A stretch of DNA of 64,000 nucleotides from an uncultured virus (IMG/VR IMGVR_UViG_3300000553_000007) (IMGVR_UViG_3300000553_000007); one strand, 5' to 3'; counted from the first letter of the stretch, positions 13,817 to 59,842 are shown. Numbers and translations: made by a program. Notes: a model not told the origin generated them from the letters alone.

Positions 13817-14476
13817 TCAAAAGGATTTTGTTTCTTCGCCGTGACGAAGAGATTTCCATGCTCTGTGTAAAGCTTCGGCTGCATCATTTTTGGTCTTGAA
13901 CGGTTTCTTTGGGTCTTGTTTATAAGCTCTATCACCGTTAGGCCCTTTCACAAGACCGACGAGATACCCATTTTCTTGAGATACTATTACTCCCAAAAGA
14001 ATACTTCCATAATATACGTCCGTTGGAACTCCAAATCCATCACCACGTTTTAAATATGTGTAATCATCGAATCTATATTGTTCGTTTAGTTTGTCGTTTA
14101 ATCTGGGGTCATTTAATTCATCACGAACACACGTATTACTTCTGGGGTCGGTTACCACATTATTAGAATATCCTAAATCTTCACTTACGGGTCTATTAAT
14201 TTGTTCCAGTCTTCGTTTAATCTCAGTTTGAAACATGATATAATCTTGGGTAGCTTGTTTACGCATACCCCAATCGTCGTCTGATGGTTTTACCGATTTA
14301 ATAGTTCTGGCCGCCTTGTTTCTTAGGGCCTTTAAATTATCCAATGTCATCATTTTTAACTTAGGATTCCATTGTGTGTCAAATGAACGTCTACCAGGAA
14401 GCTTGGAGTTGATATCACTTTGAGATACTTCCTTTATAATCTCTCTTATCAATTTTTTTAACGTAGACTTATTCAT
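13817..14476 (-). CDS. Hypothetical protein with 'LKKLIREIIKE' leader (putative head-packaged)
   Basis: MNKSTLKKLIREIIKEV leader, internal VSE/LNE linkers, TATTTATA 7 nt upstream. Confidence 0.65.
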   Translation of the reverse strand: MNKSTLKKLIREIIKEVSQSDINSKLPGRRSFDTQWNPKLKMMTLDNLKALRNKAARTIKSVKPSDDDWGMRKQATQDYIMFQTEIKRRLEQINRPVSEDLGYSNNVVTDPRSNTCVRDELNDPRLNDKLNEQYRFDDYTYLKRGDGFGVPTDVYYGSILLGVIVSQENGYLVGLVKGPNGDRAYKQDPKKPFKTKNDAAEALHRAWKSLRHGEETKSF

Positions 14477-14541
14477 ATACACATATAAATATCAAGTAAA
14501 ATTTAATGATGGGTGTTATTTTAACTATATGCCACATAATA

Positions 14542-14581
14542 ACAATCTCCTTACCATGATGTACACAGTAAGGAGAATTGT
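14542..14581 (-). terminator. Stem-loop after the tail tube gene
   Basis: Imperfect inverted repeat acaatctccttac...gtaaggagaattgt. Confidence 0.55.
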
Positions 14582-14605
14582 CAAATTGCGATTAAGGTTA
14601 TATAA

Positions 14606-15097
14606 TCAGTACTGGAGTATGGCGTAGTCGTAAGAAACGGTTATATTGACACTCAATGGGTCCCCCGTGTTCGTCCAGTCAACCGATTGGAAATCAGCAG
14701 CAGTAACGAATGCACCTATAAGCGTCCACTCTTCTACCTTATCACCGACTGGGCCTAATACGTTTAGAGTAATATTTTTCTTATAGAAATCCATATATCC
14801 ATCACGACCGGTCACAGATTCGTGTGATAGACGAACCCATTCCATCACAGCTTGTGCGCCAGAAGGAACGATTGCGTCATAAAGTTCCATTGCCACAGGT
14901 TCCCAAATAGACTTACCTTTGTAATATCTCTGGAGATTGATGTGGTCAAGAGCTTTACGTTCTTGTGTTAATTTTGGTCTATCCGTCTTTCTTAATAGAA
15001 AAGAAGGGATACCGTCAATATACAAAATGAATCGGTTTTGAACTTTTGGTTCAAAAGCGGTCCAGAATATTTCATTTGAGTTTAGTAGGTCTGCCAT
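14606..15097 (-). CDS. Tail tube protein (T4 gp19-like)
   Basis: 163 aa; FEPKVQNRF, KGKSIWEPV..ELYD, VMEWV, GPVGDKVEEWTLIGAF, SYDYA. Confidence 0.9.
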   Translation of the reverse strand: MADLLNSNEIFWTAFEPKVQNRFILYIDGIPSFLLRKTDRPKLTQERKALDHINLQRYYKGKSIWEPVAMELYDAIVPSGAQAVMEWVRLSHESVTGRDGYMDFYKKNITLNVLGPVGDKVEEWTLIGAFVTAADFQSVDWTNTGDPLSVNITVSYDYAILQY

Positions 15098-15194: not shown

Positions 15195-16862
15195 ATGTTG
15201 ACAGTATATGAACCAAAAGAAATAAATATGGGAAGACCAAGAAAAAATCCACTAACAGTTGATAAAATATGTCCTACATGCGGTAAGTCATTTAATGTTT
15301 TTTATAGAAAAAATAAACAGATATTTTGTTCCAAGACGTGCGCACAACACAATCCATCGGTATTGGAAAAAATGAAAAATAGTCAACAAAAAAAGTGGGA
15401 TGAAAAATATGATGGATTACATCCAATGAAAATAAAATCAACCGTTGAAAATTTCAAAAAATCTTTATTTAAAAATAATGGAAATGATTATTTTACAAAT
15501 TATCTAGTTAAAAAAACAAAAGAAACAAAATTGGAAAAATATGGAGATGAAAATTATAATAATAAAGAAAAATTAAAACAAACTTGTTTGGAAAAATATG
15601 GCGTTGATAATTTTGTAAAAACCGAAGAATATAAAGAAAAATCAAAACAAACGTGTTTGAAAAAATATAATGTTGAGTATCCATCACAATGCAATTCATA
15701 TAAAGAAAAATTTAAAAATACCGTTTATGAACGATTTTTACAAACAGGAAGGTTTGATAATTTTACCCCATTATTTGATATAAAAACTTACACTGGAGTT
15801 TTAAGTGGACAAAGATATAAATTTAAATGTGACAGATGTGATGAAACTATAGAATGTAGTCTTGATGATGGAAAATTTCCTATATGTTTTACGTGTGATA
15901 AAAATTGTTCTTCTTTTTATCAAAAAGAAATATATGACTTTTTAAGAAATGAATTAGGAAATGATACGATTATTCTTACAAACGAAAGAACTATCATATA
16001 TCCAAAAGAGTTGGATATTTTTATACCATCATTAAATTTGGCTATAGAATTCAATGGGACGTTTTGGCATAGTGAGATAAGTGGAAATAAAAATAAGGTA
16101 TATCATTTAAATAAAACAAAATCTTGTATATTCAAAGGAATAAAACTAATTCACATCTTTCAATTTGAGTGGGACACCAAAAAAGAAATTATAAAATCCA
16201 TATTAAAAAATATAATTAAAAAAACACCAAATAAAATTTATGCAAGAGAATGTGAAGTGAGAGATATTACTCTTCAATGTTCCATTGATTTTTTAGAAAA
16301 GAATCATTTACAGGGAAAAGACAAAAGTAGTATTAAATTAGGGTTGTATCATAAAAATGAATTAGTATCCGTTATGACATTTTGTAAATCTCGATTTGAC
16401 AAAAAATGTGAATATGAAATGTCTAGATATTGTAACAATTTAAACACTTCTATAATAGGCGGTGGAAACAAATTATTTTCACATTTTATAAATTCATACA
16501 GACCAAATTCTATGGTGAGTTATAGTGATAGGAGATATTTCAATGGAAATATATATCGACAATTGGGGTTTACATTTGTAGATAATACTTCGCCATCTTA
16601 TTTTTATTTAAAAGAATATAAAATCGTATTCAATAGAATAAATTTTCAAAAACACAAATTAAAAAAGGTATTGTCTAATTTCGATGATAAATTATCGGAG
16701 TGGGAAAATATGAAAATTAATGGATTTGATAGAATATGGGATTGTGGTCATTCAAAATGGGTGATAAAATTCAATTATCCAACCAAGGGTTTAAAAAACA
16801 ATTCACTATCTTTAGATTCCATTAAAGACATCAATTCTTCCAATGACTCGTCAATTTTATGA
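15195..16862 (+). CDS. Putative homing endonuclease (CxxC, KYG repeats, PD-(D/E)xK domain), opposite strand to its neighbours
   Basis: 'KETKLEKYG/KQTCLEKYG' repeats, ELDIFIPSLNLAIEFNGTFWHS, C-terminal SYSDRRY...RIWDCG; likely start at MGRPRK (15228). Confidence 0.75.
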   Translation: MLTVYEPKEINMGRPRKNPLTVDKICPTCGKSFNVFYRKNKQIFCSKTCAQHNPSVLEKMKNSQQKKWDEKYDGLHPMKIKSTVENFKKSLFKNNGNDYFTNYLVKKTKETKLEKYGDENYNNKEKLKQTCLEKYGVDNFVKTEEYKEKSKQTCLKKYNVEYPSQCNSYKEKFKNTVYERFLQTGRFDNFTPLFDIKTYTGVLSGQRYKFKCDRCDETIECSLDDGKFPICFTCDKNCSSFYQKEIYDFLRNELGNDTIILTNERTIIYPKELDIFIPSLNLAIEFNGTFWHSEISGNKNKVYHLNKTKSCIFKGIKLIHIFQFEWDTKKEIIKSILKNIIKKTPNKIYARECEVRDITLQCSIDFLEKNHLQGKDKSSIKLGLYHKNELVSVMTFCKSRFDKKCEYEMSRYCNNLNTSIIGGGNKLFSHFINSYRPNSMVSYSDRRYFNGNIYRQLGFTFVDNTSPSYFYLKEYKIVFNRINFQKHKLKKVLSNFDDKLSEWENMKINGFDRIWDCGHSKWVIKFNYPTKGLKNNSLSLDSIKDINSSNDSSIL

Positions 16863-18649
16863 GCGTCCATACGATTGTCATCATCGTCATTACTATCATC
16901 GTCATCGCTGCCTGAGAAATCATCAGAATAATCTTTTTGTCTATAATAATCCATCTTTACATGTTTTGGATATTTTATATTAACATTCTTTTCTAACCAA
17001 TAATCCACGCTTTCTTTTTCTTCTTCGTTTGGTCCATCAAATGTGGCCCACCAATATACCGTGTTTGTACTTCTTTTATATCTCCATAGTAACGACTCCG
17101 TTCCAAATCCCCATCTCTGTTCCGGAGGTAAGGTTCTACTCCATCGTTCGTGGGTCATATCTTCCGAATCTACACTAGTTCCTATTACTTTAAAATTTTC
17201 TCTATTTACGAATCCAAGAAATAGATTAGATTTTTTATCCATTAATTCATCGATTCTATGTCCTGAAAAATCTAGGGTGTGAGTTTGTCTTGGATTTTTG
17301 ATGTTGTATTTTTCTTTAAGATATTCTGCCACCGCAAATCGTTGTTGTTCAGGAGCATCTTCATACCAGTATATTGTATTGTTTTTCGACTTATATCGCC
17401 ATTGTATCAAATTACCCCAATTTCCATCGTTAAATTGTGGATTGTGTTTCATAACAAGGTCATGAGTCACATTACCAAGCCCAACCAAATCTTTTTCAGA
17501 AATAATTTCTAAATCATTATTAATCCAACCAACTACCAAATAATCTTTATTAATATTCTCATCAACGCTATGACCGTGAGTATAATATTTTCCTGATAAA
17601 ATATGTTTTGGATTTTTAACCCCGTATTTTTTATTAATGTGATGGTCAACCAATTCCTTTGATTCTTCACTTCCCATGCCGGCGCCCCAAGTATCCCAGT
17701 AAACCGTATTTTTTATGGAATTATATCTCCATCTCAAATCTCCGGCTCTATATCCAATTAAATCTCTGTGACCTAGATTGTTATTATAATCCTTCATGGA
17801 GAATATATCACCGTCTTTATTTATCGAACCGACTAAAGTGAATGGTTTTTTATCTTTATGTTTTGCAAACATTTTTATCAAATCTTCAACCGAATGGTCA
17901 TTTTCATTTAATGGATTTGTATCCGTAGAAGGTTGCATATTACCATGTTCAGGCAAACTAACCTGTTTATCGTAGACATCGTTAATGGTTTTTTTAATTT
18001 GTTCTAAAACTCCAGTCTTTCTCAACGCTTTAAAAACCAAATTCTCGGTACAAAATTCTCCACCTTTAGCTAAACCTGTGTCACGGTAGTTTCTTATAGA
18101 CTTCATCAACTCTTTCAACTTTTCTATATCACTAGTTTCTACAAGTTTCTTAGCTTTTTGTTGTATCGTTTGGAATTTCTTTCTTATTTTATCACTATCA
18201 AAATCTATTTTTTCATGAGTGGGTTCTTGTAACCATTTACCATCGAATAAAGAATAAATTGCGGCTCCCTCTCGGGACAACTGAGCATTACTATTTGGTT
18301 CTCTGATGTCTTGAATGTATACTTCTACAGGATGACCTTTCATCTCTATGTCGTGTTCGGTATTCCACTTAAATCCCAACGAATCCATGAACTTTCTAGC
18401 GTAGTCTTCATTAATTTTCTCTTCGGCAATGTCTATGACGAGATGTAAATCTATATCACTAGTCGGCGTCCAATTGTAATTGGCTGATGAACCTATGAAT
18501 AATATATCATGAAGTTCGCCGTCCAATTCCGTAGAGTTATAAAAATCCTCGGCAATTTTTAACAATGAATCCCTAACCTCAGATTTGATGGTTTTATCCT
18601 CATTCCAAATATTAGGGTCTAACGTCTTATTGTAGATTCTAAGTTTCAC
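16775..18649 (-). CDS. Pol-beta-family nucleotidyltransferase fused to three copies of an unnamed 'WRY' domain
   Basis: FIGSSANYNWTPTSDIDLHLVID and VEVYIQD; three ~95-aa repeats G.[IV]N...H...WRY....T[VI]YW...L..[KN][YV].[VI]K.P. Confidence 0.8.
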   Translation of the reverse strand: MKLRIYNKTLDPNIWNEDKTIKSEVRDSLLKIAEDFYNSTELDGELHDILFIGSSANYNWTPTSDIDLHLVIDIAEEKINEDYARKFMDSLGFKWNTEHDIEMKGHPVEVYIQDIREPNSNAQLSREGAAIYSLFDGKWLQEPTHEKIDFDSDKIRKKFQTIQQKAKKLVETSDIEKLKELMKSIRNYRDTGLAKGGEFCTENLVFKALRKTGVLEQIKKTINDVYDKQVSLPEHGNMQPSTDTNPLNENDHSVEDLIKMFAKHKDKKPFTLVGSINKDGDIFSMKDYNNNLGHRDLIGYRAGDLRWRYNSIKNTVYWDTWGAGMGSEESKELVDHHINKKYGVKNPKHILSGKYYTHGHSVDENINKDYLVVGWINNDLEIISEKDLVGLGNVTHDLVMKHNPQFNDGNWGNLIQWRYKSKNNTIYWYEDAPEQQRFAVAEYLKEKYNIKNPRQTHTLDFSGHRIDELMDKKSNLFLGFVNRENFKVIGTSVDSEDMTHERWSRTLPPEQRWGFGTESLLWRYKRSTNTVYWWATFDGPNEEEKESVDYWLEKNVNIKYPKHVKMDYYRQKDYSDDFSGSDDDDSNDDDDNRMDAHKIDESLEELMSLMESKDSELFFKPLVG

Positions 18650-19753
18650 TTATTTTCCAAGTCGATTCATTTCATCCGCATGTTTAACCATCACATTACG
18701 AGTATCATTAGCATCATTCAAATCATCGGCGTAATAAGTCTTACCTTCGTCTCGTTTACCGTTGGTCATCCACTTAACAACCCACTCTCCTGTGGATGTA
18801 TCCTTCACTGGCTTCGATATGACGTGTTTATTTGGTCGACTGACCATCTTGGATAAAGAACTATGAACTTTGAATGGGTCTTGTAATACGCCTTCACGAG
18901 TTTCATCTCCTTCTGCGTCATTTTTACTACCATACCACATTTCACTTACGAGTTCTTTTATTATACCTTTTAATTCTCTTTTAGAAACGTTTTCTTCAAA
19001 CTTGACTCTCCATCTTTCTCCGGGAATATGTTTTGGGTCTTTCTTCATGTCTTTATCGTAGACATATCCGACGCCTTCTTGAAAAGGAACATCATCTTCC
19101 GGTGTCGTAGGATTGGATTTCTTTGGTTCCAAATCTTCTGGCCCCATAACCGAAACGTTATAATCTCCGTGACCGGCTTTGTATGCCTTTTGCGCTTCCT
19201 CAGCAGCTTCATCGCGGGTATTGGCAACATGATGAATTGATATATCATTACCAAGACACGCATCTGTGGATTTACAGAAAGTAGGAACTTCCACCAACAC
19301 AACATATTTACCACTCTTAGCTAATCGTTTGGCTTTTTCAGTCGCATTGCGTCTTGGAGTCGTGGCTTGTGAATGGGCAAATGCTCTTTGAGAATCGTTT
19401 GAATATCCATCAGAATCATCATGTTGTCCTGCCGATTGATTTTCTTTGAATCCTTGTGGTGTCTGGGCTTGAGAATTTGAAGTTCTGATGAATTCCTTGA
19501 TTCCACCGTCGAAATTGTTCTGTATGCCCGTTAATAACGTTTGTACGTCAATGCCGTCTACATCAGACTCTTCATCTATATCATCCCACTGACATTCCTT
19601 GACCCACTCACGCATCTGTTTAATTAGGTCTGGATGTTCAGAGGCAAATCTAGAACTTGGAGATTCCGTGTCACCCACAGTCTTATCTGCGACTTGAAGT
19701 TCTTCTTTTACAATCTCTTTAATGATTGCCGCTATATGTGATAATTTCGTCAT
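18650..19753 (-). CDS. Modular hypothetical protein (putative head-packaged)
   Basis: Leader MTKLSHIAAIIKEIVKEEL, an internal second leader-like segment SKRELKGIIKELVSE, FKE/FQE linkers. Confidence 0.65.
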   Translation of the reverse strand: MTKLSHIAAIIKEIVKEELQVADKTVGDTESPSSRFASEHPDLIKQMREWVKECQWDDIDEESDVDGIDVQTLLTGIQNNFDGGIKEFIRTSNSQAQTPQGFKENQSAGQHDDSDGYSNDSQRAFAHSQATTPRRNATEKAKRLAKSGKYVVLVEVPTFCKSTDACLGNDISIHHVANTRDEAAEEAQKAYKAGHGDYNVSVMGPEDLEPKKSNPTTPEDDVPFQEGVGYVYDKDMKKDPKHIPGERWRVKFEENVSKRELKGIIKELVSEMWYGSKNDAEGDETREGVLQDPFKVHSSLSKMVSRPNKHVISKPVKDTSTGEWVVKWMTNGKRDEGKTYYADDLNDANDTRNVMVKHADEMNRLGK

Positions 19754-20247
19754 ACGTATTTTTTTAGTTGATTAATCGTACCTGTAGCCGAAACGTGTAG
19801 GATTCCTATACCGCCTTTTTTAATCCATTCCTGTATTACTACTGGTGTATCGTCTATAATTATATCGCCGGGCCTCGAATAATGACGTTTTCTGTGTTTA
19901 TTCTCTACCAAGATGATATCAGATTCTCGCAAACTTGGAAGGTTGTGTCGCAACCAAGCAGTCTTTCCCTGTGCGGTCTGATTATTCCCTTTGTCAGATT
20001 TACCCAACGCACTTAATATTTTAACTTTTAAAAAATTGTTGGTTATGAAATTCCACATTTCTTTACTACCGGACATCCAAGGCAACTCTGAAAAGAACTT
20101 AGATTTACCATACTCGTTGATTGCATTCCACAATTCTTCTTCGGAAATTGTATCAGGCGACGTTCCCGTTATATTATAGACTCCTTGGTCAAAATCCGCT
20201 AGAACTCCGTCCATATCTACGTAAACGATGCTATTATAGGTTGCCAT
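19750..20247 (-). CDS. HAD-family 5'(3')-deoxyribonucleotidase-like protein
   Basis: VYVDMDGVLADF, ILSA, K..W, IIIDD motifs. Confidence 0.85.
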   Translation of the reverse strand: MATYNSIVYVDMDGVLADFDQGVYNITGTSPDTISEEELWNAINEYGKSKFFSELPWMSGSKEMWNFITNNFLKVKILSALGKSDKGNNQTAQGKTAWLRHNLPSLRESDIILVENKHRKRHYSRPGDIIIDDTPVVIQEWIKKGGIGILHVSATGTINQLKKYV

Positions 20248-20719: not shown

Positions 20720-22033
20720 TTATCGAAAAGTTGCCCAAAATTCTTTGAAGCTAGGAATTGTCCCAGTGTAAGTTTTTATATCATGACCTTCTGGCCAATA
20801 AACTAATTGAGATGAATCTATATCCATAGAATGTACTCTCAAATCCTTTGATGGTAAATTACCTTGAATGATAGCTCTGAATTTGCCGCGTGCGTAAGAA
20901 TCTGCGAAATCCCTATCAAATGTTACGAAATCCCCAGGTTTAATTTTATGAGTCGGTGAATTGGTACCTCTCCAAACCCTAACTACTTCAGGGAATCCTT
21001 CAGTTTTCCAACCAGCATAGTGTTGAACAAAAAGCCGTTCAGTAGTATTTTCGTTTGGCTGTTTTAAATCTGCCAACCTTGGAAATTTTTCAACCCAATC
21101 TTTACCATAGGCGGTTTCACCCATGGCGTGTCTGTAGAGACGTTCAAATGCCGTCTGAGCCTCTTCATCCGATATGTTAGTATTCGTATCATGTCCCGCA
21201 AATAGATTTGAATTAAAGAGTTCTTTCTTAGCTGCTTCAAATGTCTTTTTACGTTTCACTACATTTTTTAATAAAAAGAGCGGGTCGGATGTGTTAATTT
21301 TATTAACCAGACGTGCGTATTTTTTCTGTTCTAGATTTTCTAAAGTTGGTTTTATATCCTCTTCAAAAAATTTCTCTTCTGCTTCACCGTCATTTGGATA
21401 CAATTCTTTAGCCATACGTGTTCTCATTCTTGTCAAATAATCATTACTATCCATCCAGAGTGAGAATTGATACGGGCTGAATTTGTCATCGTCTTCCATT
21501 ACTCTCCACACGTTAGATATAAAAAATCTGGCTACCTTTTCATGATTACGGTCGATGGATTCATTTAGTGACTGCGACATGTCTTCCGGATTATAAATGT
21601 GTTCAACTCCCTTGAAATGACCCTCCCCTCCTGGAAGAAATTCTACTATCTTACGATGTTGTCTACCGTGTTCCACCAAAGCTCTTATTTGTTTTGGTGT
21701 CAATCGTTGACGAGGTTGTCCATTTACGTAATAATACTGAAACGCATCTCTCACTCCACGAACCCAACCTCTGTTAAATAATAAAGACTCCGTTTCGGTG
21801 GTAGATGACATCGGATAATTTATACTACTCAATTCTTCTTTTTTTATTTTTCCTTTTGATATTAAATCTCTTACGATTTCTTTGGCGGTAATTTCATGTG
21901 AATACGAAACATCCACCATCGTACCATCTGTTGAAATCCAATGACTATATGAATTACTATTCTCAAGTAATCTATATGCGGATTCATTGATAACATCGTT
22001 AATCAGAGAATTTAACTGTTCTTTCGGTATCAT
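20720..22033 (-). CDS. Modular protein: 'W-H-GWxR' domain plus possible ADP-ribosyltransferase-like C-terminal domain
   Basis: Leader LNSLINDVINE..LLE; HWISTDG..SHE..A..LFNRGWVR; SLNES linker; C-terminal VRVWRG..IKPGDFVTFDRDFADSYA. Confidence 0.55.
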   Translation of the reverse strand: MIPKEQLNSLINDVINESAYRLLENSNSYSHWISTDGTMVDVSYSHEITAKEIVRDLISKGKIKKEELSSINYPMSSTTETESLLFNRGWVRGVRDAFQYYYVNGQPRQRLTPKQIRALVEHGRQHRKIVEFLPGGEGHFKGVEHIYNPEDMSQSLNESIDRNHEKVARFFISNVWRVMEDDDKFSPYQFSLWMDSNDYLTRMRTRMAKELYPNDGEAEEKFFEEDIKPTLENLEQKKYARLVNKINTSDPLFLLKNVVKRKKTFEAAKKELFNSNLFAGHDTNTNISDEEAQTAFERLYRHAMGETAYGKDWVEKFPRLADLKQPNENTTERLFVQHYAGWKTEGFPEVVRVWRGTNSPTHKIKPGDFVTFDRDFADSYARGKFRAIIQGNLPSKDLRVHSMDIDSSQLVYWPEGHDIKTYTGTIPSFKEFWATFR

Positions 22034-32769: not shown

Positions 32770-33255
32770 TTATTTCTTCTGCCCGTGCATTTTAATTAGT
32801 TCGTTGCCTAATTCGGCAACCTTGTTTGGAAACCAATTACTTCTAACTCCAGATGGGCGGCCTGCGCCATTATCAGTAGCTAATTTGACTAATTCTTCGC
32901 CTATTTGCATCTCAGTTCGTTCTTCCGGATTACTCATATCAGTCTCATCATGTTCCTTTTTAAGAGGAAGGGTGTTAGCAGAATCTTTTACAAATTTAGC
33001 ATCTTCTTCATTGTCTTTATACCCAAATTCTTCGGCTAATATTCGAGCTTCTTGTAATGCAGTTCTCTTGGCGGTACTAACATCTTTGATATAACCCATA
33101 CCAACTGCCTCGACGTGGCTATAAGAAATCTTATCACCGGCATTCATGAAAACCTTTTTAAGTCCTGATGCAATGAGCGACTCATTCACGTCTTTACTTT
33201 CTTTCAACAATCTAAAATTGTTGCCGCCTCTATTTTCAAATAATTTTGTTTTCAT
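32770..33255 (-). CDS. Hypothetical protein with LxE leader
   Basis: MKTKLFEN..FRLLKES..VNES; tightly packed in the operon. Confidence 0.6.
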   Translation of the reverse strand: MKTKLFENRGGNNFRLLKESKDVNESLIASGLKKVFMNAGDKISYSHVEAVGMGYIKDVSTAKRTALQEARILAEEFGYKDNEEDAKFVKDSANTLPLKKEHDETDMSNPEERTEMQIGEELVKLATDNGAGRPSGVRSNWFPNKVAELGNELIKMHGQKK

Positions 33256-33258
33256 ATA

Positions 33259-33906
33259 TTATCTATCGGAATCACCGTAATCAGGTTCTATTTTACCTAT
33301 GGAATCCATGATTTGTGATTCTATTTTTTCACCATTGATTTTAATGTAATTGTTTACTGCTTGTTTAATCGACTCGAATTGTTCAGGAGAAAGTTTTTTA
33401 AAGTCGATTTTAGTTGGCTTTCCTTTTTCATGATGAATGTCAACCGAGACAAAATCCCAGTCGATAATATTCAAATCTGCGCCGACGGCGGGTGATGAAT
33501 ATTCCGGTGGGCCGCCCATTCCTGAGGCAGATTCTCCGGGATGTCCTTCATAATCAATATTTATGGTCGCCTCAATCATATCAGTATCAGTCGATAAACC
33601 AGGAATAATCAAACCCTCCAATTCGATTGGATAATTTTCATGTGTTCCCGTACTGGTATGTGATTTTTTATTAAAAAGTTCTTTTAACACCGTTTTAATT
33701 AACGGTTTCAGTTCTGATTTTTTCATATTAATAGATTCATTTAAACCAGGCTTCCACTTATCTTGTGGTTTAAAGTATTGGTTTTGAGCATTTGATGCTA
33801 CCGAACGGATGTATTCCCACATTCTAGGGTCACACAAATCTTCCGCTCGTTTGGTTTTGTTAATGATATCTAAAAGTATTTTTATGTAGTCGGTTGTTGG
33901 TTTCAT
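33259..33906 (-). CDS. Hypothetical protein with internal leader-like motif
   Basis: GLNESINMKKSELKPLIKTVLKE. Confidence 0.6.
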   Translation of the reverse strand: MKPTTDYIKILLDIINKTKRAEDLCDPRMWEYIRSVASNAQNQYFKPQDKWKPGLNESINMKKSELKPLIKTVLKELFNKKSHTSTGTHENYPIELEGLIIPGLSTDTDMIEATINIDYEGHPGESASGMGGPPEYSSPAVGADLNIIDWDFVSVDIHHEKGKPTKIDFKKLSPEQFESIKQAVNNYIKINGEKIESQIMDSIGKIEPDYGDSDR

Positions 33907-35144: not shown

Positions 35145-35182
35145 AATAAATATAGAATCCGAGCTCTTTACGACTATTTATT
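35145..35182. promoter_or_regulatory. Back-to-back TATTTATT motifs at the strand switch (putative divergent late promoters)
   Basis: Minus-strand TATTTATT at 35145-35152 faces the neck gene; plus-strand TATTTATT at 35175-35182 lies 4 nt before ATG 35187. Confidence 0.6.
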
Positions 35183-37827: not shown

Positions 37828-38954
37828 TTAAATTATCGACGTTAATTTTAGAATCCAAACAAGGTATAGTCAATCTTGGTTATCCTGAAATTATTGCGTC
37901 GATACTATATGAGAAATTCGGTAATTTGGCGACTCTTATGGCGAAGTGGTATAGAGAATTTAAAACGTCAAAAATTGATAAAAATTGGTTTCGAGATGTT
38001 CATTATAGAACGTCTAATCATATAGGGTTATTTGATATGGTAAATATGTATTATTACACAGATACTCCTGAACATTATTTTAAAGAACGAAAACGTCTTG
38101 GTCTTGATGTTGGAGATTATACTGTGGATGATATATCTCCTGAATATTTGAGAAAACAAAAAATATTGTGGAAAAATGAAATCACGCAGGATTTTTTAGC
38201 ATCTAATTTTTTCACGCGTGATACTTTAATAACCGATATTATTAATAAAAGTCTTAAAGATATTGCCCCATATAAACATTTGACATTTTGGCAAGCCATT
38301 CTTAAATATGACGAACGTCGAATCTTTAAAGATAAGGTTCCATTAAAAGTCTATGATGATGGGTATAAGTGGATAAATGTCGGTTCTAAATGTCATTTGA
38401 TGGGACACTATATGTCCAACTGTGGAAGTTCAGGCTTAATGAGTGGTGATAAAGATAGAACGTTATTAGGATTATTTGACGTAAATAATAAACCACATGT
38501 CATCGTAACATATTCACCAAATGAGAAACGAATCAGTGGAGATGAGGGGCCAGGATATTCAGAAGTTAAATCCAAATATCATGATTACGTTTTGGATTTA
38601 GCCAAATTATTAGGAGCTAATTTTGATATAGGCAAATCAAAATCAAAATCATTATCATTGAAATATAGATTAAAAGATAAAGGAAGTAATCTTAAAAGAT
38701 TAGACCCGTATTGTACGTCGTTCGATGAATATTTCCGATTTAATATGGGTTCCGACGTATATTACACCAATTGTTATGAGGTTATATCATTGGAAGATAT
38801 GAAAAAAATAAGAGATGCAATAAAAGAGAAAAAAATTAAATTTACACATCATCCTAAGAACATAATTGAAGCGGCGTTCGATTCCTATAATAAACCAGCC
38901 ACCCAATCTATAGGTGTAAAATATCTAAGTTTCTACGATTTACTAAATAAATAA
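37824..38954 (+). CDS. Hypothetical protein with PcfJ-like motif and MIKL leader
   Basis: MIKLSTLILES; DGYKW..MGHYMSNCG..LFD.NNKPHV. Confidence 0.55.
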   Translation: MIKLSTLILESKQGIVNLGYPEIIASILYEKFGNLATLMAKWYREFKTSKIDKNWFRDVHYRTSNHIGLFDMVNMYYYTDTPEHYFKERKRLGLDVGDYTVDDISPEYLRKQKILWKNEITQDFLASNFFTRDTLITDIINKSLKDIAPYKHLTFWQAILKYDERRIFKDKVPLKVYDDGYKWINVGSKCHLMGHYMSNCGSSGLMSGDKDRTLLGLFDVNNKPHVIVTYSPNEKRISGDEGPGYSEVKSKYHDYVLDLAKLLGANFDIGKSKSKSLSLKYRLKDKGSNLKRLDPYCTSFDEYFRFNMGSDVYYTNCYEVISLEDMKKIRDAIKEKKIKFTHHPKNIIEAAFDSYNKPATQSIGVKYLSFYDLLNK

Positions 38955-38957
38955 AGT

Positions 38958-40511
38958 ATGATTAAATTAAAAAACATATTGTTTGAAGGTCATTATCCTG
39001 TCGTCGTTGGTATTATAACGATGGATGGACAAATCAAATCTATGGAGACGGATAGGACGCATGGGGATTTAAATTTTAAACGTGGAATATGTTGGAGATA
39101 TAATCCAAGTAAGAAAACTACGTATTGGCATGGAGATGAAAGTGAACATGATGAGGCCGATGAAATTAATGTCGATTCACATTTACAGAAAAAATATGGA
39201 TACACAGTAAATAGAAATATTACTTTAGGTGGTAGTGAGTCTATGGATAATATGGAATTATATGGAAAACACCACAACGACGCGCATGGAGTTTATAGAT
39301 TAAATGAATCGCACGAAGATACTCCAATTCAAAAAGAATCCGAATCTCTCAGACGACAATTAGAACAAAAATACCCACAACTGGAAGATTTATTTTTTTA
39401 TGTTTCTTGGAATAATGTTCTTAATATTTCAGCATTACGAGTGAAGTCGGAATTTAGAGGTACCGGAATCGGTACATCAGTAATGGGAGAAATAATAAAA
39501 TTTGCAGATAAACATAAATTACCAATCGTTTTATCACCCGGACCGGAACGAGGAAAAAAAGAGAAATTGGATAGATTCTATAAAAAATTAGGATTTGTAA
39601 CCAACAAAGGAAGAAACCGAGATTATAGATTATCGTCGGCATTTGGTAAAACTATGTATAGAAGACCCATGAACGAAGGTTTTGAACTGCCATCTGACAC
39701 CGATACTAAGTCTGAAATTTTGTCTAGATTTATAGCATCATTTTTCTTAAATTATTTTAAAACCAAGATATCCAACACTAAAACAAAATCCGACCAATCG
39801 ATTGTAAAATACAACATGTATTATAGATTGGCAAAACAATATAGAGAAGCTGGTAAACATCTATTCAAAGTAACCAAGGATAATTCTAAAACGTATTGGG
39901 GTAAGGCCGATTATAAACTTACATCAAAAGATGAAAGTATGCCTAATGTTATTGTAAAAATGTATGATGGTAATACCACCGACGTACAAGGATATGTCGA
40001 TGATACCGATATGACCAATATAAAGAATATTTACATTGTGGTATTTAAATCTAAATTCATTAACACGTTTAATAAAGCTACGGAAGAATTAACTGATACC
40101 ATCAAACATGAAGTAAGGCATTGGGTTCAATTTAAAACTCAAACAGGATTACCAAAAGAAAAAATCTTGAATAGAGATACTGACGTTTTGGGAAATTATT
40201 TACATGACATTTCACCAAAGGATATGCCCGGATTAAAATACAAAGCGGGTAGAGAACAACACCATATGAGAGATATTGAATTTAAAACCAATGTTCATAC
40301 ATATGCGTTTTATATAAAACAATATCTTAATAAGAATGTAGAAAAGAATATGTGGGCTAGGAGATTTAAGAGTATTGTAAATGGAGTTCCTGCCTATACC
40401 GGACTTGAACGCATGGATTTTATAATCGATAATCTCGGTAGTATGAAAAAGAAAGATGATACTAGATGGAAACAATTTGTTAAAGAACTTTATAAACTTA
40501 TATTTTTATGA
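38958..40511 (+). CDS. Three-module protein: 'WRY' domain, GNAT acetyltransferase, HExxH metallopeptidase-like domain
   Basis: MIKLKNILFE leader; WRYNP..TTYW; RLNES; LRVKSEFRGTGIGT..LDRFYKKLGF; PMNEG; TIKHEVRHWVQ. Confidence 0.75.
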   Translation: MIKLKNILFEGHYPVVVGIITMDGQIKSMETDRTHGDLNFKRGICWRYNPSKKTTYWHGDESEHDEADEINVDSHLQKKYGYTVNRNITLGGSESMDNMELYGKHHNDAHGVYRLNESHEDTPIQKESESLRRQLEQKYPQLEDLFFYVSWNNVLNISALRVKSEFRGTGIGTSVMGEIIKFADKHKLPIVLSPGPERGKKEKLDRFYKKLGFVTNKGRNRDYRLSSAFGKTMYRRPMNEGFELPSDTDTKSEILSRFIASFFLNYFKTKISNTKTKSDQSIVKYNMYYRLAKQYREAGKHLFKVTKDNSKTYWGKADYKLTSKDESMPNVIVKMYDGNTTDVQGYVDDTDMTNIKNIYIVVFKSKFINTFNKATEELTDTIKHEVRHWVQFKTQTGLPKEKILNRDTDVLGNYLHDISPKDMPGLKYKAGREQHHMRDIEFKTNVHTYAFYIKQYLNKNVEKNMWARRFKSIVNGVPAYTGLERMDFIIDNLGSMKKKDDTRWKQFVKELYKLIFL

Positions 40512-41287
40512 TAAATCTAAAAGAGATGTTAATTGAAAGACAGGTAAACCAATCTGAACGACTTGGATGTTTAATGGCAATGGTCGATGAATCCACCACC
40601 AAAACACTAATGGAATTCAGTAGGAAGTTAATAACGGATGATGATTTATATCATAAAATCGACGATAATGGTGAGGATGAATTTGGTAGAGAAGATGAAT
40701 GTCATATAACTATACGTTATGGATTCACTAAAGATTTAAATGAATTGGATGTTAGACAATTATTGAAAGGTCATAAAGAATGTTTGGTAGAAATAACCGG
40801 ACTAGATATTTTTGACACAAATCCAGAATACGATGTGGTGAAATTTAATATTGATTCTCCGGTTTTAACTCAACTGAACACGATATCAGGAATTTATCCG
40901 AACAAAACTAATTTTCCAGATTATCATCCACATCTTACGTTGGCTTATGTCAAAAAGGGAACATTTCCACACAAGAAAAAATTACAAATGGAAATACCGA
41001 TAACATCCGTATGTTATTCGCCCATATCAGGAGCCAAGAGTTATTTCACATTAGATATGGAGTCGGTAAGTGAGACGGTTGAATCTCCAAAAATTGATGC
41101 TAAAATTGAAGAATTGGAATTAGAGTGGGATAGACTAGATTCTATTGGTACGGGAGTTAAGAGACAACACGACATAACTCAAGAGATTGCACGACTTAAA
41201 AAAATAAAAGAACCAAGAGAAAAATTAGACCCCAATTCACCAAAAGTAAAAGATATGTGGGCATCATTACACAATCAAATAAAATGA
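40508..41287 (+). CDS. 2H phosphoesterase (LigT/Acb1-like)
   Basis: Two HxT motifs, ECHITIRYG and YHPHLTLAY; leader MINLKEMLIE. Confidence 0.85.
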   Translation: MINLKEMLIERQVNQSERLGCLMAMVDESTTKTLMEFSRKLITDDDLYHKIDDNGEDEFGREDECHITIRYGFTKDLNELDVRQLLKGHKECLVEITGLDIFDTNPEYDVVKFNIDSPVLTQLNTISGIYPNKTNFPDYHPHLTLAYVKKGTFPHKKKLQMEIPITSVCYSPISGAKSYFTLDMESVSETVESPKIDAKIEELELEWDRLDSIGTGVKRQHDITQEIARLKKIKEPREKLDPNSPKVKDMWASLHNQIK

Positions 41288-41338: not shown

Positions 41339-42286
41339 ATGAAACTAAAGACCCTAATTGAGATTAATGAGTGGATTAGTCATGGTATTGCGGTAAATCG
41401 TACTCCTGATTCCAAATTACGAGCCACTCCTGGTGGACAGAATGATGGAGCTCCAGGCTGGAATGAAGGGGTTGGTGATTGGGACGGTATTATAGAGGGT
41501 AAAGACTGGTTTTGTTACTTAGAAGGTAATGATTGGCATAATAAACGTTCGGGGGCATCCATTTACATCACTGAGGATGACAATCCGCATAAGATGTGGA
41601 TTAAGATAAAAACTCATGGATTACGCAAAGCCAACGACACTAATGAGTCGTATAAAGACCGTATTCGTAAACATACCAACAAAGTTGCCCGTTCTTGGAT
41701 GTCGGCCGCTAAAGAAATACATGATGGAGCCGGTTTGAATGAAGTAGGCAATCCCATATCGGTATCATGGAAACATGCGTTTAAAGAGGCTTTAAATGAC
41801 CCAAAAGTAAAGGCCCATCTAGCCGAAACCGGAGAAAATAAACTATCTCCTATTGCCGACCCTGTGAATTTTACTCCTAGAATTGGAGAATCGGATGTGA
41901 AAAAACAATCAATAAGTTACTCAGCGGTGGTATTAACAGAAGAATCTCAGAATAAAATCAAATCTTTATTTAAAGACCAGATGCCAGATGGTTGGACGGT
42001 ATACGCACATCATATGACTATTTGTATGGGTGGACTTCCAGAACAACAGAAATCGGATATTGGAAAACAAGTAACCTTGAATTGTGATGCTATTGGCAAA
42101 TCCGACAAAAGTATAGCATTAAAAGTAAGTGGATATACCACTTCAAATAAAATTCCTCACATTACATTATTTGTAAATGTTGTTGGTGGAGGAAAGCCTG
42201 CAGATTCAAAAAAAATCACAAACTGGAACCCACTCCCACAACCGATTTCAGTTCAGGGTATTGTTAAAGAAATTCCACAAAGATAA
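41339..42286 (+). CDS. Two-domain protein with C-terminal 2H cyclic phosphodiesterase (tRNA-ligase CPD-like)
   Basis: SYSAVVL..AHHMTI..IPHITL..GGKP.DS..I.NW; leader MKLKTLIEINE. Confidence 0.75.
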   Translation: MKLKTLIEINEWISHGIAVNRTPDSKLRATPGGQNDGAPGWNEGVGDWDGIIEGKDWFCYLEGNDWHNKRSGASIYITEDDNPHKMWIKIKTHGLRKANDTNESYKDRIRKHTNKVARSWMSAAKEIHDGAGLNEVGNPISVSWKHAFKEALNDPKVKAHLAETGENKLSPIADPVNFTPRIGESDVKKQSISYSAVVLTEESQNKIKSLFKDQMPDGWTVYAHHMTICMGGLPEQQKSDIGKQVTLNCDAIGKSDKSIALKVSGYTTSNKIPHITLFVNVVGGGKPADSKKITNWNPLPQPISVQGIVKEIPQR

Positions 42287-42296
42287 TAATAGTTTA

Positions 42297-56874: not shown

Positions 56875-56899
56875 ATAATAAATACAAACGTATTACACT

Positions 56900-58171
56900 T
56901 TAATCGTAATACGTTACATTAAATGCCCCTCGTTTAGCCACATCGCCTATCGCTTCAAATAGGTTACTTTTCTTAGTTGAGGCAATTTTAGTCTTTAAAA
57001 ATTTACCCAATGCCACCAAATGTTTACAAAGTCCTTCGCCATAGTCATATGCGGGTTTAGGCCTCCTATTAAGACACCCATTTAGACTATCAGTTCCGAT
57101 GTGACTAGCTCCCTTAGATGCGTCGTTATACGCAAATCTATACATAAAATCTTCACATTCACAATCTACTTCACACTTCAATTTAGATGCGTCATCATTA
57201 TTTCCAACCGACCCCTTTAAAAATTTGATTGACCCTCTAAATGGTTTATTGGTAGTTGTAGTCTGTGGACTGGATTTATATCTAAAATTCCACTGTTCTT
57301 GATTTCCATCGGTACTAACAGGTAAAGAACGAACCGTCACGTTAGACGACTTTTCTTTCCTTTCCGGCGTGGTGAGTCTTAACAACTCATCGTATGACAT
57401 TTCTTCATTTATACCACATTTCAATACAATTTCTTCCAATAATTGAGTCTCTCGTCCTGTAGTATCATCGACTAAATATTCACACTGTTGTTCTATGGCT
57501 AAGTCATTCAATGCCTTTAATTTCTTTGAATTAATAGAAGTTCCCTTTTCATATGAATAATTTAACGTAGTATCATTACCCCACTTTTGTTTAACGACTC
57601 TGATAAATCCCAATCGATACATCATAGTATAAATGTCAGATAAATCTACATTTACCTTACGTCCAATTTTCTTTAAATATTCTTCCGCCCAATATCTATG
57701 TTGTTCAAATGATACTGGATGTAAATTCATATGAGGGCCCAACCACCAAAATTTCAAACCAACCTGTTCAGTTAATATGGATTCTTGAAGAAAATCGGTT
57801 ATAGTTTTTCCTGTCTCACAATCTTCTAAAAATTTACAATCATGTTCAGTAGCCAAATCTTTTAATGCTTTCATCTGTCGTTGAGTCGGTTCTGGTAACG
57901 GTTCTTTCCATGATGTATTTCTATAATACATCGTATTTCCACTAAAAACCACTCTGATGAATCCCATTTTATATAAAACTGACTGTGCATCTAAACTTAG
58001 ATACCCAGGAATTTTCATTTTACTCAGTAAATGAAGAGCCCAACCACGATGTCCCTCATATCGTACTTCATGAAATTTTAAATTCGGGTCTAACCAACCG
58101 CCATATGGTCTGTCGGATGAATATTCATCGTCGGTATCATATGATATTTCTTTTAACTTAGTCGTATTCAT
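56900..58171 (-). CDS. Two 'W-H-GWxR' domains plus SWIM-type zinc finger
   Basis: GGWLDP..GH.GWA..YKMGFIRV and FWWLGP..QH.YWA..YRLGFIRV; C-terminal CECEDF...CKH. Confidence 0.7.
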   Translation of the reverse strand: MNTTKLKEISYDTDDEYSSDRPYGGWLDPNLKFHEVRYEGHRGWALHLLSKMKIPGYLSLDAQSVLYKMGFIRVVFSGNTMYYRNTSWKEPLPEPTQRQMKALKDLATEHDCKFLEDCETGKTITDFLQESILTEQVGLKFWWLGPHMNLHPVSFEQHRYWAEEYLKKIGRKVNVDLSDIYTMMYRLGFIRVVKQKWGNDTTLNYSYEKGTSINSKKLKALNDLAIEQQCEYLVDDTTGRETQLLEEIVLKCGINEEMSYDELLRLTTPERKEKSSNVTVRSLPVSTDGNQEQWNFRYKSSPQTTTTNKPFRGSIKFLKGSVGNNDDASKLKCEVDCECEDFMYRFAYNDASKGASHIGTDSLNGCLNRRPKPAYDYGEGLCKHLVALGKFLKTKIASTKKSNLFEAIGDVAKRGAFNVTYYD

Positions 58172-59046
58172 TTTCCTAATTTTCTTTTAAAAATATTACT
58201 AACACACAAACTATCATTGTTTCTTATTATACCATCTCCTTTTATATCGAAAATATTATATAAGCATCCTGTGTTTGTTCGATTGTCTATAGAAACCATA
58301 AATATATCAAATCTTTTATTATCTATCATTCTTATTTTACTGAATATATTACCGTTACTATCCCTTATAAATATTCCGGTATTATTACTTATTAACAACA
58401 CATTATCAAAGATATTTGTGGTAAAATTCATATCCAATGATATTCCTGCTGCTAGATTATTGAAAATTAATAGATTTTGAAATAAACAATTGGTTGTTTG
58501 ATAACATGCAATGCCATCAAATTGATTGTTAAATGCTACATAATTACTGACGACTAAATTCAAGACTCCGAACGTGGTGACTAACCCACCTGATATACAA
58601 TTATGAATCGTCACGTCATTGATGAATACATCTTTAGAATTTTGAATTATTACTCCATTATTATACATCGGATATCCGAGTGGTGATAGTTTCCAAAGTT
58701 CCTTTGATTGATTGGTTCTATTACCATCTATCTGTATATTCATCAATACGACGTTAGACACGCATTCCGACCCCTGTATACCAACTACGATAACAGGACA
58801 ATTTACATTACTACTTAATAAGAATATAGTGTTGGTATCACCTACTATAGCGATATTACTCTTATAAATGATAATCGGACTTGTTATGTTTATGGTAGAA
58901 TTTGGTAGAAGTATAATGCCGCCATCGACCGGAATGTCATCCAATAATTTTTTAATATATGATTCGTCAGACATTGTAGCTGAAAAACAAGTGATACACA
59001 TTATTATCAGTATAATACCGGAAGCTAAAATTGTATTAATTCTCAT
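58168..59046 (-). CDS. Right-handed beta-helix (pectate-lyase-like) protein with signal peptide/TM
   Basis: Hydrophobic N-terminus; GGIILLP..., IDGNRTNQ, Asn-ladder repeats (NN.FDGI, NN..AGI). Confidence 0.75.
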   Translation of the reverse strand: MRINTILASGIILIIMCITCFSATMSDESYIKKLLDDIPVDGGIILLPNSTINITSPIIIYKSNIAIVGDTNTIFLLSSNVNCPVIVVGIQGSECVSNVVLMNIQIDGNRTNQSKELWKLSPLGYPMYNNGVIIQNSKDVFINDVTIHNCISGGLVTTFGVLNLVVSNYVAFNNQFDGIACYQTTNCLFQNLLIFNNLAAGISLDMNFTTNIFDNVLLISNNTGIFIRDSNGNIFSKIRMIDNKRFDIFMVSIDNRTNTGCLYNIFDIKGDGIIRNNDSLCVSNIFKRKLGK

Positions 59047-59842
59047 ATGAAGAATTTTCGTCTATTTTAATGACTCGTCTTTCTCTATCACGTTTCATCC
59101 ATTTAATACCCTTTTCTATTGCCAAATCTTTTATCTTCTTCAAAATAAATGGCGGTGGATTTTCTCCTCTTTTATAATCATAATCTATGATGGTTTCTTT
59201 ATCACCATCACCTAACCAATCATCATATAATCCGACTCTGAGCCACCCCATAGCGAGTAGTATGTAATACGGAGAAGACTTTATTTCGTCGGTATTTATC
59301 TCTCCTTGTGAATTGTTCTGAACATCTTTCCATCTATCAATCTGTTCGGGTGACATATGTAAACTATTAATTAAATAATTCCTTGCCCAATTTATATGAG
59401 ATTCATGAGTTACCCCGTAGAACTTACCTTCAGGACTCAACCACCAGAATCTTCCTTCTCTGTTTTCTTTTTCTTTTGGTGGTACAAATTTGGTGGTGGT
59501 GACTGATTCATCAATATCATCATAACGTCTATCTGGAATATCATAATCCTCGTTATCCCAGTATCCTTTATTACATTCTACGTTATATCCCTTTCTAGTA
59601 AGGTAGTTCGATGTTATTGATTTTATTTCTCCGGTAGGTCTATCCGTCCATTCTACTTTTCCATTATTGTATCTAAATCTATTTCTTGACATAGGCAACC
59701 CAGCGGCGCCGTGAGTCATTGTCATCACATAATCTTTTGAAAATTCTTTAAAGTGAACTCCGCCATTGGAATCGACTGTACCTAATCCGAATTTGGCAGT
59801 TTTTGGATAGAGCTCGGATATAAGAGATTTCAACTTAATCAT
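59036..59842 (-). CDS. Modular protein: divergent 'WRY' domain plus 'W-H-GWxR' domain, MIKL leader
   Basis: MIKLKSLISE; GTVDSNG..TH..RFRY..VEW..YL..KGY; DIDES; FWWLSPEG..SH.NWA..LAMGWLRV. Confidence 0.65.
   Translation of the reverse strand: MIKLKSLISELYPKTAKFGLGTVDSNGGVHFKEFSKDYVMTMTHGAAGLPMSRNRFRYNNGKVEWTDRPTGEIKSITSNYLTRKGYNVECNKGYWDNEDYDIPDRRYDDIDESVTTTKFVPPKEKENREGRFWWLSPEGKFYGVTHESHINWARNYLINSLHMSPEQIDRWKDVQNNSQGEINTDEIKSSPYYILLAMGWLRVGLYDDWLGDGDKETIIDYDYKRGENPPPFILKKIKDLAIEKGIKWMKRDRERRVIKIDENSSYEN

Follow-up and report, generated by a model that had tools for sequence, protein, structure and literature searches.

Leader-tagged module chains with hydrophobic-x-E linkers as probable protease-cut head cargo of a large T4-type phage

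The window, a 64,000-nt stretch of DNA, comes from a large, uncultured, freshwater T4-type phage, apparently related to Immutovirus. It is identical to the record G001 across a 4193-bp overlap (100%), and the T4-like head genes were read from that record. Just outside the window, at L132:11126-11758, G001 encodes a gp21-type protease upstream of the scaffold, with matches to Peptidase_S77 (Pfam, E 1.7e-26) and to the T4 gp21 structure 5JBL (E 2.9e-15). The gene adjoins portal and terminase, and an S77 prohead protease was found in all five related genomes (5/5). Across 35000-42400, contigs of four runs carried neither letter changes nor indels; one joint, 21 bases long on one side, was discounted as probably matching a repeat. 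The relevant features, including the two recurrent modules WRY and WLxP, are as follows.

12145..13425, minus strand: cytidylyltransferase-like protein whose residues 312-327 resemble a leader; uncertain member of the leader/linker set
13817..14476, minus strand: long leader; small modules with VSE101 and LNE134
16775..18649, minus strand: leaderless; nucleotidyltransferase, LNE249, WRY, VDE364, WRY, IDE468, WRY, IDE601 tail
18650..19753, minus strand: long leader and internal long-leader copy at residues 258-271; small modules
20720..22033, minus strand: long leader, WLxP, LNE158, middle module, P-N-E328 (off motif), possible ART-like module
32770..33255, minus strand: minimal leader; hydrophobic-x-E three times within residues 1-25; possibly a core protein
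33259..33906, minus strand: long leader inside the protein, starting with Met (residues 61-76) and preceded by LNE57; absent from the original list
35175..35181, plus strand: TATTTAT motif; the leader ATG follows after 5 nt
35187..35744, plus strand: single-domain lysozyme (Phage_lysozyme, Pfam, E 1e-11) with a short 10-aa leader (35187-35216) and upstream TATTTAT
36388..37827, plus strand: CCA-adding/HD enzyme (Pfam PolyA_pol, HD) with a leader by the leader rule; no linker recognised
37824..38954, plus strand: 376-aa protein with a short leader by the leader rule
38958..40511, plus strand: three-module polyprotein; leader, WRY, LNE117, GNAT, MNE240, HExxH zincin-like module
40508..41287, plus strand: leader, Acb1-like 2H phosphoesterase (Pfam Acb1, E 9e-7; two HxT motifs), VSE189, 70-aa module
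41339..42286, plus strand: minimal leader, further module(s), IGE184, 2H-like module (two HxT motifs)
56900..58171, minus strand: minimal leader, WLxP, LQE130/LTE135, WLxP, LLE246/INE256, SWIM-like module, LFE406 tail
59036..59842, minus strand: leader, WRY, IDE, WLxP, IDE tail
60755..62536, minus strand: Gp23-type major capsid protein (Pfam Gp23); E52 and E61 are alternative candidate sites for a propeptide cut
62581..64000, minus strand: scaffold, rich in hydrophobic-x-E; 5' end beyond the window, full protein 517 aa in G001

Polyproteins of the window and its relatives combine at least two biochemically unrelated domains, whose order is shuffled between relatives. Catalytic motifs are intact in the sequences of the 2H, nucleotidyltransferase and HExxH modules. 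HExxH occurs in 38958..40511 alone among the window polyproteins, in a module without a Pfam match. The SWIM-like module of 56900..58171 reaches E 0.064 at best, and a search of this protein against cultured phages gave no match. The last module of 20720..22033 is possibly ADP-ribosyltransferase-like, a lead resting on an atlas score of 0.85.

The original prediction described near-identical leaders on unrelated proteins. All 12 quoted leaders translate as quoted (12/12), but near-identical they are not. They form three classes: short (35187, 36388, 37824, 38958, 40508, 59842), long (14476, 19753, 22033) and minimal (41339, 58171, 33255), and the minimal ones all fail our leader rule, which was fixed on window genes and then applied to three related genomes. 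The rule called 9 of 56 window genes and no tail, neck, fibre or nuclease gene. In the related genomes it called 84 of 1066 ORFs compared with about 15 in shuffles; some 7 of these 84 are improbable cargo, such as RecA and terminase, and 61 lack a Pfam match. That the carriers are unrelated was confirmed, as in 71 of 78 distinct short-leader genes the tag precedes 49 unrelated first modules. The 78 genes have 75 different 30-nt sequences, indicating that the tag is kept as a protein and not as a DNA repeat, and leader codons are freely synonymous. The residue after the first leader Glu is most commonly Ile (19/78), which counts against the explanation favoured here. Internal copies of whole leaders (24 matches against 3-8 per shuffle), together with reshuffled module orders in relatives, support the predicted recruitment of modules by fusion.

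The equation of leader-bearing with polyprotein held in part: several leader proteins are multi-module, but the lysozyme at 35187, the CCA enzyme at 36388 and the protein at 37824 show no sign of it. Conversely, the clearest polyprotein, 16775-18649, is leaderless. The effector label likewise suits part of the set, since several members are single-domain or uncharacterised and could be degraded core proteins.

Module junctions were predicted to fall at hydrophobic-x-E, and by our own tally 11 of the 12 window junctions do, the exception being P-N-E at residue 328 of 20720..22033. One junction without the motif and one polyprotein without a leader count against the explanation favoured here. 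The predicted excess at boundaries over interiors was recovered in 143 proteins outside the window, with the motif in 327 of 422 module flanks (a count inflated by tandem module copies that share linkers by descent) against 276 of 729 core windows (p 8e-40), although the latter figure shows that bare hydrophobic-x-E is common. For a strict motif the counts were 149/422 and 42/729. Flank enrichment reached z 13 against composition-keeping shuffles, and in the same test the Asp version of the motif was not enriched at module flanks. A small residue follows E at 260 of 535 flank sites compared with 89 of 416 core sites, and many linkers keep the tripeptide and this residue whilst the remainder has diverged. 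Hydrophobic-x-K is likewise enriched upstream of modules (z 7), so helix periodicity contributes to the E-motif signal.

At mosaic breakpoints in cargo the motif is present in 26 of 45 cases compared with 45 of 210 interior positions, whereas breakpoints outside cargo showed no enrichment (tail 3/24, nucleases 9/44). However, [LIVM][ND]E exceeds shuffles in window tail genes as well (15 against 7.7), and the whole-protein motif count of window cargo is in modest excess (32 against 22; 8/300 shuffles).

The same motif class in scaffold and capsid, also part of the original prediction, was found in both. The complete scaffold of G001 begins with its own leader. Hydrophobic-x-E sites in the scaffold number 10 compared with 4.7 expected (5/500 shuffles); across 29 scaffold sequences there are 217 sites against 106 expected. 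Capsid N-termini carry the motif at the second candidate site in 44/44; the alignment of the capsid protein to T4 is weak.

Another phage group joins the same module by K-x-A linkers, and K-x-A fills its head-cluster proteins too, where it is enriched and the E motif is not. Discordant E/K linker pairs inside proteins number 14 against 51 ± 6 expected (0/2000 permutations, in a test inflated by tandem copies). No S77 or S78 match was found in five K-x-A genomes, and a candidate protease of these phages gained no support from Pfam or BLAST.

Virion proteins have been listed by gel band for Atu_ph07, a cultured Agrobacterium jumbo T4-like phage (Table S5, PMC6102473). Its gp43, gp53-63 and gp482-483 resemble the present set in having an LxE-ending leader, LxE-joined modules and a GNAT homologue with the motif after it (PMC6102473). 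The phage is distant and spells its leader differently; its proteins have been detected in virions. All 12 genes of the leader family gp43 plus gp53-63 were detected (12/12; PMC6102473). We calibrated band masses from Table S5 itself, mapping 99 of its 100 rows for gp20-329 to genes (gp286 spans two loci). The 87-kDa gp53 peaks in the band of 19-22 kDa proteins (predicted pieces 27, 23, 14 and 17 kDa), the 41-kDa gp63 among proteins of 25-31 kDa (predicted pieces of 12 and 28 kDa) and the 34-kDa gp483 among proteins of 13-16 kDa (either half being about 17 kDa). The 56-kDa gp54, whose junction lacks hydrophobic-x-E, occurs in bands 1-4 only, i.e. intact. By contrast, gp482 runs low though its junction has no clean motif, and gp109, gp250 and gp305 run low as well. 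The migration of gp53, gp63, gp483 and gp54 fits linker cutting. The virions were purified by PEG only, and cut-site peptides were not reported; the authors call gp43, gp53-63 and gp482-483 hypothetical virion proteins, and term searches of the main text met no discussion of processing (PMC6102473). The window-trained leader rule was not enriched among Atu_ph07 virion proteins (4/10 against 95/333, p 0.48), whilst a looser rule, written after data inspection, was (22/45 against 77/298, p 0.002).

Because a common leader tag goes together with a head-protease motif between swappable modules, tagged chains probably enter the capsid and are then cut into separate proteins by the phage's own head protease. 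A capsid-targeting leader and linker cleavage by the prohead protease are well supported, if indirectly. Late proteins would dock in the prohead core through a basic, amphipathic peptide at their N-terminus that ends in hydrophobic-x-E, in the manner of the T4 capsid-targeting sequence. A gp21-type serine protease would then cut after Glu, removing leaders, breaking up scaffold and trimming capsid protein, and would also cut the inter-module linkers, freeing domains of ~10-30 kDa inside the head. Sequence evidence suggests that fusion or recombination between tagged neighbouring genes takes place at the leader, turning the downstream leader, or the cut site in it, into the linker. In the weakest step, enzyme modules (Acb1-like and other 2H, GNAT, nucleotidyltransferases, lysozyme, ART-like) would be ejected with the DNA and, by analogy with T4 internal proteins and Alt, might act against host defences or in host takeover. 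We consider packaging of the leader proteins very likely and cutting of their linkers by the head protease likely; ejection of the modules as effectors is slightly favoured. The explanation as a whole, spanning targeting, cutting, fusion origin and ejection, seems reasonably likely.

It is unlikely that the proteins are packaged and lose their leaders but keep their internal linkers as uncut fusion leftovers, the chains acting whole like the N4 virion RNA polymerase, which is packaged unprocessed (PMC5512222). Whole internal leaders are expected from fusion alone. In SPN3US, moreover, each of the 14 mapped cuts takes off a terminal propeptide, and ~80% of other head proteins are uncut (PMC10052503); internal release is thus without mapped precedent in the literature surveyed. 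Mere leftovers do not, however, account for the many linkers that keep just the tripeptide and small residue amid divergence, nor for Atu_ph07 gp53, gp63 and gp483 at fragment size with gp54 intact.

We also think it improbable that the tagged proteins, once packaged and cut, act in the head (core, inner body, DNA packing), or are discarded like T4 gp22, gp67 and gp68, rather than serving as effectors. Intact catalytic motifs and the conflict domains among the cargo families (ART-PolyVal, GNAT, Acb1, ArdC-N) argue against this, and core structure is not expected to shuffle rapidly. The scaffold and core-cluster genes do, however, bear the same leader and sites, and both the leader proteins lacking a Pfam match and the functionally unassigned WLxP and WRY modules are compatible with it.

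Cutting in the cytoplasm by an embedded zincin or a host protease is very unlikely: 38958..40511 does end with an HExxH module, and Iyer et al. propose embedded metallopeptidases for polyvalent proteins (PMC5512222), but HExxH is confined to that one window polyprotein, the linker motif is that of scaffold and capsid, and linker type changes along with the head-protein motif in K-x-A phages. The notion that AT-rich starts, amphipathic helices and Glu-rich loops produce leader and linkers with no signal, which draws on the common core motif and the hydrophobic-x-K enrichment, is largely refuted by the shuffles, the unenriched tail and nuclease breakpoints, the freely synonymous leader codons and two mutually exclusive dialects.

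The system we favour, packaged chains cut by the prohead protease, would be a variant of the T4 capsid-targeting and polyvalent-protein systems. T4 gp21 cuts after L/I-X-E (PMC9026906), and T4 IPI-III and Alt likewise share, as unrelated proteins, a short N-terminal peptide ending L/I-X-E (PMC9026906, PMC5694885, PMC12373910). Both systems have a gp21-family protease, a scaffold with many sites, a capsid propeptide and variable anti-defence cargo. In the accounts consulted, however, T4 cargo loses terminal propeptides only, whereas the present phage also has the motif between shuffled folded modules, bears about 15 candidate cargo genes within 64 kb, and varies its leader between a short and a long version. 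The polyvalent proteins of phages and conjugative elements are likewise conflict proteins with several domains; their packaging and injection have been predicted, and they have been likened to polyproteins (PMC5512222). They share domain types with our set: the GNAT of 38958..40511 is related to DarB-like proteins and Atu_ph07 gp63, and in both G001 and relatives ART-PolyVal is preceded by a leader. Their release has been proposed via embedded metallopeptidases, and the word 'linker' is absent from the main text (PMC5512222), whilst the chains here are short (2-4 modules) and leader-tagged, with the prohead protease as candidate cutter. In phiKZ and SPN3US many internal head proteins are cut after Glu, with several sites per propeptide (PMC10052503, PMC5694885), and SPN3US prefers Ser after the cut, in line with our small residue after E; these belong to another phage family, with an S/A/G-X-E or A-X-E motif and, in SPN3US, terminal mapped cuts. 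P1 DarA and DdrB are head-packaged, proteolytically processed anti-restriction proteins (PMC12810830, PMC5512222), but they are fixed proteins with single trimming events, and the accessible accounts describe no common leader across shuffled modules. Our search, which left most subscription journals outside, found no paper on prohead-protease linkers between shuffled cargo modules.

More broadly, the case seems evenly poised for large phages widely using the head-maturation protease for polyprotein processing, with a lineage-matched leader/linker code in which one fusion yields a packaged, cut-free, injected effector, and for unrecognised cut products in the Atu_ph07 data. If true, hydrophobic-x-E here and K-x-A in an unrelated group would be codes matched to each lineage's protease, and the T4 capsid-targeting rule would come to cover shuffled precursors of several modules as well as single small proteins. 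Sequence would suffice to predict mature virion effectors, packaged anti-CBASS and RNA-repair enzymes among them, and the enzyme freeing the domains of some polyvalent proteins would gain a name. Such a rule could find the proteins that uncultured large phages bring at infection, before gene expression, and divide 'hypothetical' ORFs into true mature units.

Profile comparison did not relate WRY to WLxP. Neither had a credible Pfam match (atlas scores <0.9), their profiles gave no convincing match in the searched part of Atu_ph07, and WLxP found nothing in BFVD at E<=0.001. AlphaFold models of both are confident (pLDDT 95.7 and 93.0), with best Z scores of 5.0 and 5.3 in a structure search against 48,161 chains. 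Pairwise figures put the phage's Gp23 at about 51% to Mel-JY01 and immuto and 44% to RM378.

TATTTAT(A) motifs 4-7 nt upstream back shortened starts at 35187, 59842 and 14476, and TATTTAT occurs, besides 35175..35181, at 41327+, 59855-, 22046- and 14491-. In the relatives it lies upstream of 21 of 84 leader genes compared with 72 of 982 other genes, and it is probably a late-gene signal.

The window is from the late part of a T4-like myovirus genome, where genes for sheath, tube, baseplate, neck and fibres occur with many homing nucleases and the capsid gene:

60755-62536, Gp23 capsid protein

The nearest named capsid proteins were those of Microcystis phage Mel-JY01 and Flavobacterium phage immuto (both about 51% identity) and RM378 (44%). 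Related contigs reached 250-370 kb, and the listed holders came from freshwater and freshwater sediment metagenomes. Where contigs from four runs covered 35000-42400, no letter changes were found. The fibre region also contains a tandem pair of DUF285 repeat proteins nearly devoid of Glu (45231-48871) and a TnpB-type (IS605 OrfB) gene inserted between tail-fibre genes (49238-50413).

Further head genes were identified in the related record G001, which was 100% identical to the window across a 4193-bp overlap. These encode the terminase, a T4-like portal, a complete 517-aa scaffold and a protease matching Peptidase_S77 (E 1.7e-26) and the T4 gp21 structure 5JBL (E 2.9e-15). In T4, gp21 cleaves after L/I-X-E, removing targeting peptides of 10-20 residues and fragmenting the core (PMC9026906, PMC5694885). 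The corresponding hydrophobic-x-E motif occurred at 10 sites in the scaffold, compared with 4.7 expected, and at 217 versus 106 across 29 related scaffolds. All 44 capsid N-termini examined carried it at the E61 position, with Ala or Ser as the next residue in 43, and the T4 capsid cut was placed 4-13 residues from E52 and E61, albeit by a weak alignment (E 0.007). The C-terminal tail of the G001 portal (L132:6164-8227) has three such sites, and in the protease (L132:11126-11758) they lie close to both ends; these positions suggest terminal trimming of both proteins.

The original prediction had quoted twelve short N-terminal leaders ending in hydrophobic-x-E, and all twelve were present in the window. 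A leader rule fixed on the window was positive for 9 of its 56 genes, missing three minimal leaders, and scored no tail, neck, fibre or nuclease gene there. In three related genomes, taken as separate regions of 20 kb, it recovered 84 of 1066 ORFs of at least 80 aa, versus around 15 in shuffles. Pfam gave no match for 61 of these 84; matched ORFs included ART-PolyVal (2), Acb1/2H (2), GNAT (3), lysozyme (2), a CCA enzyme, ArdC-N and Mom-like proteins. About 7 of the 84, RecA and terminase among them, were improbable as cargo, a number no higher than expected by chance. Among the leader-negative ORFs of the related genome G002 (94 of 146 of at least 190 aa scanned) were polymerase, ligase, helicase, clamp loader, SSB and ribonucleotide reductase. 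Conservation of the short leader is at the protein level: 78 short-leader genes carried 75 different 30-nt sequences, and 49 unrelated first modules stood behind it in the 71 genes with a called ORF. A plus-strand block (35187-42286) of six leader genes and a homing nuclease is inverted relative to the neighbouring structural genes; the order and direction of similar blocks differ in loci L002 and L004.

Two recurrent modules, which we term WRY and WLxP, occur in five and four copies in the window. In relatives they occur singly after a leader, as tandem copies, or reordered among GNAT, nucleotidyltransferase, ART, SWIM-like and HExxH modules, the last presumably zincin-like. Folds of WLxP (57464-57754) and WRY (17597-17851) were predicted confidently (pLDDT 96 and 93) and each module has an invariant His; neither predicted fold had a clear structural match. 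Modules with intact HxT pairs, which we take to mark 2H phosphoesterases, lie behind leaders at 40508-41287 and 41891-42286, one of them Acb1-like. They are candidate virion-borne anti-CBASS enzymes.

By manual tally, hydrophobic-x-E was present at 11 of the 12 junctions inside window proteins, the exception being P-N-E at residue 328 of 20720-22033. A search with a core-only WLxP profile matched 1479 cluster representatives, of which the best 150 were retrieved. Linkers outside the window were assessed starting from 160 proteins; 8 seed-holding ones were dropped and 143 had a domain. The motif was enriched at domain boundaries in these 143 proteins: 327 of 422 internal 30-aa flanks held the motif versus 276 of 729 core windows (149 and 42 for the strict motif), with z 13 against shuffles. 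An Asp version was not enriched at flanks in the same test, and a Lys version was enriched on the upstream flank only. A small residue followed Glu at 260 of 535 flank sites versus 89 of 416 core sites. Flanks of tandem domains overlap; merging gave 356 linkers, 172 of which had the motif plus a small residue. When window proteins were aligned locally with 1875 relatives, the motif lay at 26 of 45 alignment ends in cargo versus 45 of 210 interior positions, and at 3 of 24 ends in tail and 9 of 44 in nuclease proteins. Against the model, the enrichment across whole window proteins was modest in cargo (32 versus 22), and [LIVM][ND]E was also raised in tail genes (15 versus 7.7). Inside proteins there were 24 matches to whole long leaders, against 3-8 in each shuffle; two of these matches are:

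Residues 258-271 of 18650-19753, internal long leader
Residues 61-76 of 33259-33906, internal long leader

Their occurrence within proteins points to fusion of tagged neighbour genes as the origin of the linkers.

A second phage group, with complete records of about 190 kb (P0018, P0053, P0060, P0081, P0092; L134-L143, L216:1433-3910, L219:5500-8673), carries the same WLxP module with nucleotidyltransferase, 2H and ART modules, joined by K/R-x-A linkers in chains of up to 2,650 aa. At the sequence level, these flanks around WLxP are a natural control for the Glu linker motif. The two linker types were seldom mixed in one protein (14 discordant pairs versus 51 +/- 6 in 108 proteins, a difference inflated by tandem copies). 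In the K-x-A phages, enrichment was for K-x-A, with none for the Glu motif, both in the proteins adjoining terminase and portal and in a large protein encoded upstream of the probable capsid gene. Read by eye, this large protein may be a protease-scaffold fusion; family searches for the protease of these phages gave no match in any library tried.

The window GNAT protein matches gp63 of the cultured Agrobacterium jumbo phage Atu_ph07 (NC_042013). This phage encodes a homolog of gp21, and its virion proteome has been published (PMC6102473). Our comparison covered gp1-346 and gp465-501 of its 714 genes, with counts from gp1-346. Within gp40-95, a tight family of leader genes (gp43, gp53-63) has all 12 members in the virion list (PMC6102473). 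Against the model, the window-trained rule was not enriched among the listed virion proteins (4/10 versus 95/333); a looser rule, written afterwards, was (22/45 versus 77/298). Gel-band masses were calibrated from the published table itself; the table, from PEG-purified virions, lists no cut-site peptides (PMC6102473). On this scale gp53 (87 kDa; predicted pieces 27, 23, 14, 17 and 4.5 kDa) spread across bands 2-13 and peaked with 19-22 kDa proteins. The 41-kDa gp63 peaked with 25-31 kDa proteins, whilst other 41-44 kDa proteins peaked in bands 5-6; its predicted pieces are 12 and 28 kDa, and the larger is a homolog of gp62, a stand-alone protein found in the same band. A tandem pair with an LTE joint at residue 147, gp483 (34 kDa), peaked with 13-16 kDa proteins. 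The two modules of gp54 (56 kDa) meet at a junction lacking hydrophobic-x-E, and this protein was found in bands 1-4 only. The virion table (gp42-63, gp482-483; L220, L226) places multi-module proteins with LxE links at the size of fragments, and the main text of PMC6102473 was not found to discuss this. As counter-evidence, gp109, gp250 and gp305 also ran low, and the junction of gp482 has no clean motif. The window CCA-adding enzyme (36388-37827) has a leader; its Atu_ph07 homolog, gp18, is absent from the virion list. Leader-like genes and proteins with multiple sites are numerous in the cultured phage immuto (L214, NC_055915; 2294-4354, 13188-18931), a test system nearer to the window phage than Atu_ph07.

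Direct observations are the protease gene, the leader, the enrichment at linkers, the shuffling of modules and the motif that linkers share with scaffold and capsid. Leader proteins would dock into the prohead core, leaders and linkers would be cut, and the released modules would be ejected as effectors. We regard this model as probable overall, ejection as effectors being its weakest step. The system would work like that of the T4 internal proteins, whose sequence-level features the window phage shares. There is also overlap between the chains of this phage and polyvalent proteins; release of the latter via embedded peptidases has been proposed (PMC5512222). In the account of SPN3US, all 14 mapped cuts were terminal (PMC10052503). 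Prohead-protease linkers between shuffled cargo modules were not found described in the mostly open-access literature searched.

A TATTTAT motif preceded 21 of 84 leader genes versus 72 of 982 other genes in the three related genomes. Sites in the window were:

35175, plus strand, TATTTAT(A)
41327, plus strand, TATTTAT(A)
59855, minus strand, TATTTAT(A)
22046, minus strand, TATTTAT(A)
20260, minus strand, TATTTAT(A)
14491, minus strand, TATTTAT(A)
10693, minus strand, TATTTAT(A)
56884, minus strand, TATTTAT(A)

At many late genes the motif lies 3-7 nt before the start codon, and three of the shortened starts proposed for the window are backed by it. We take it to be the reverse complement of the T4 late-promoter consensus, and it is possibly a promoter for leaderless messages. 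A 5'(3')-deoxyribonucleotidase among the cargo genes (19750-20247) has the upstream motif and no leader.
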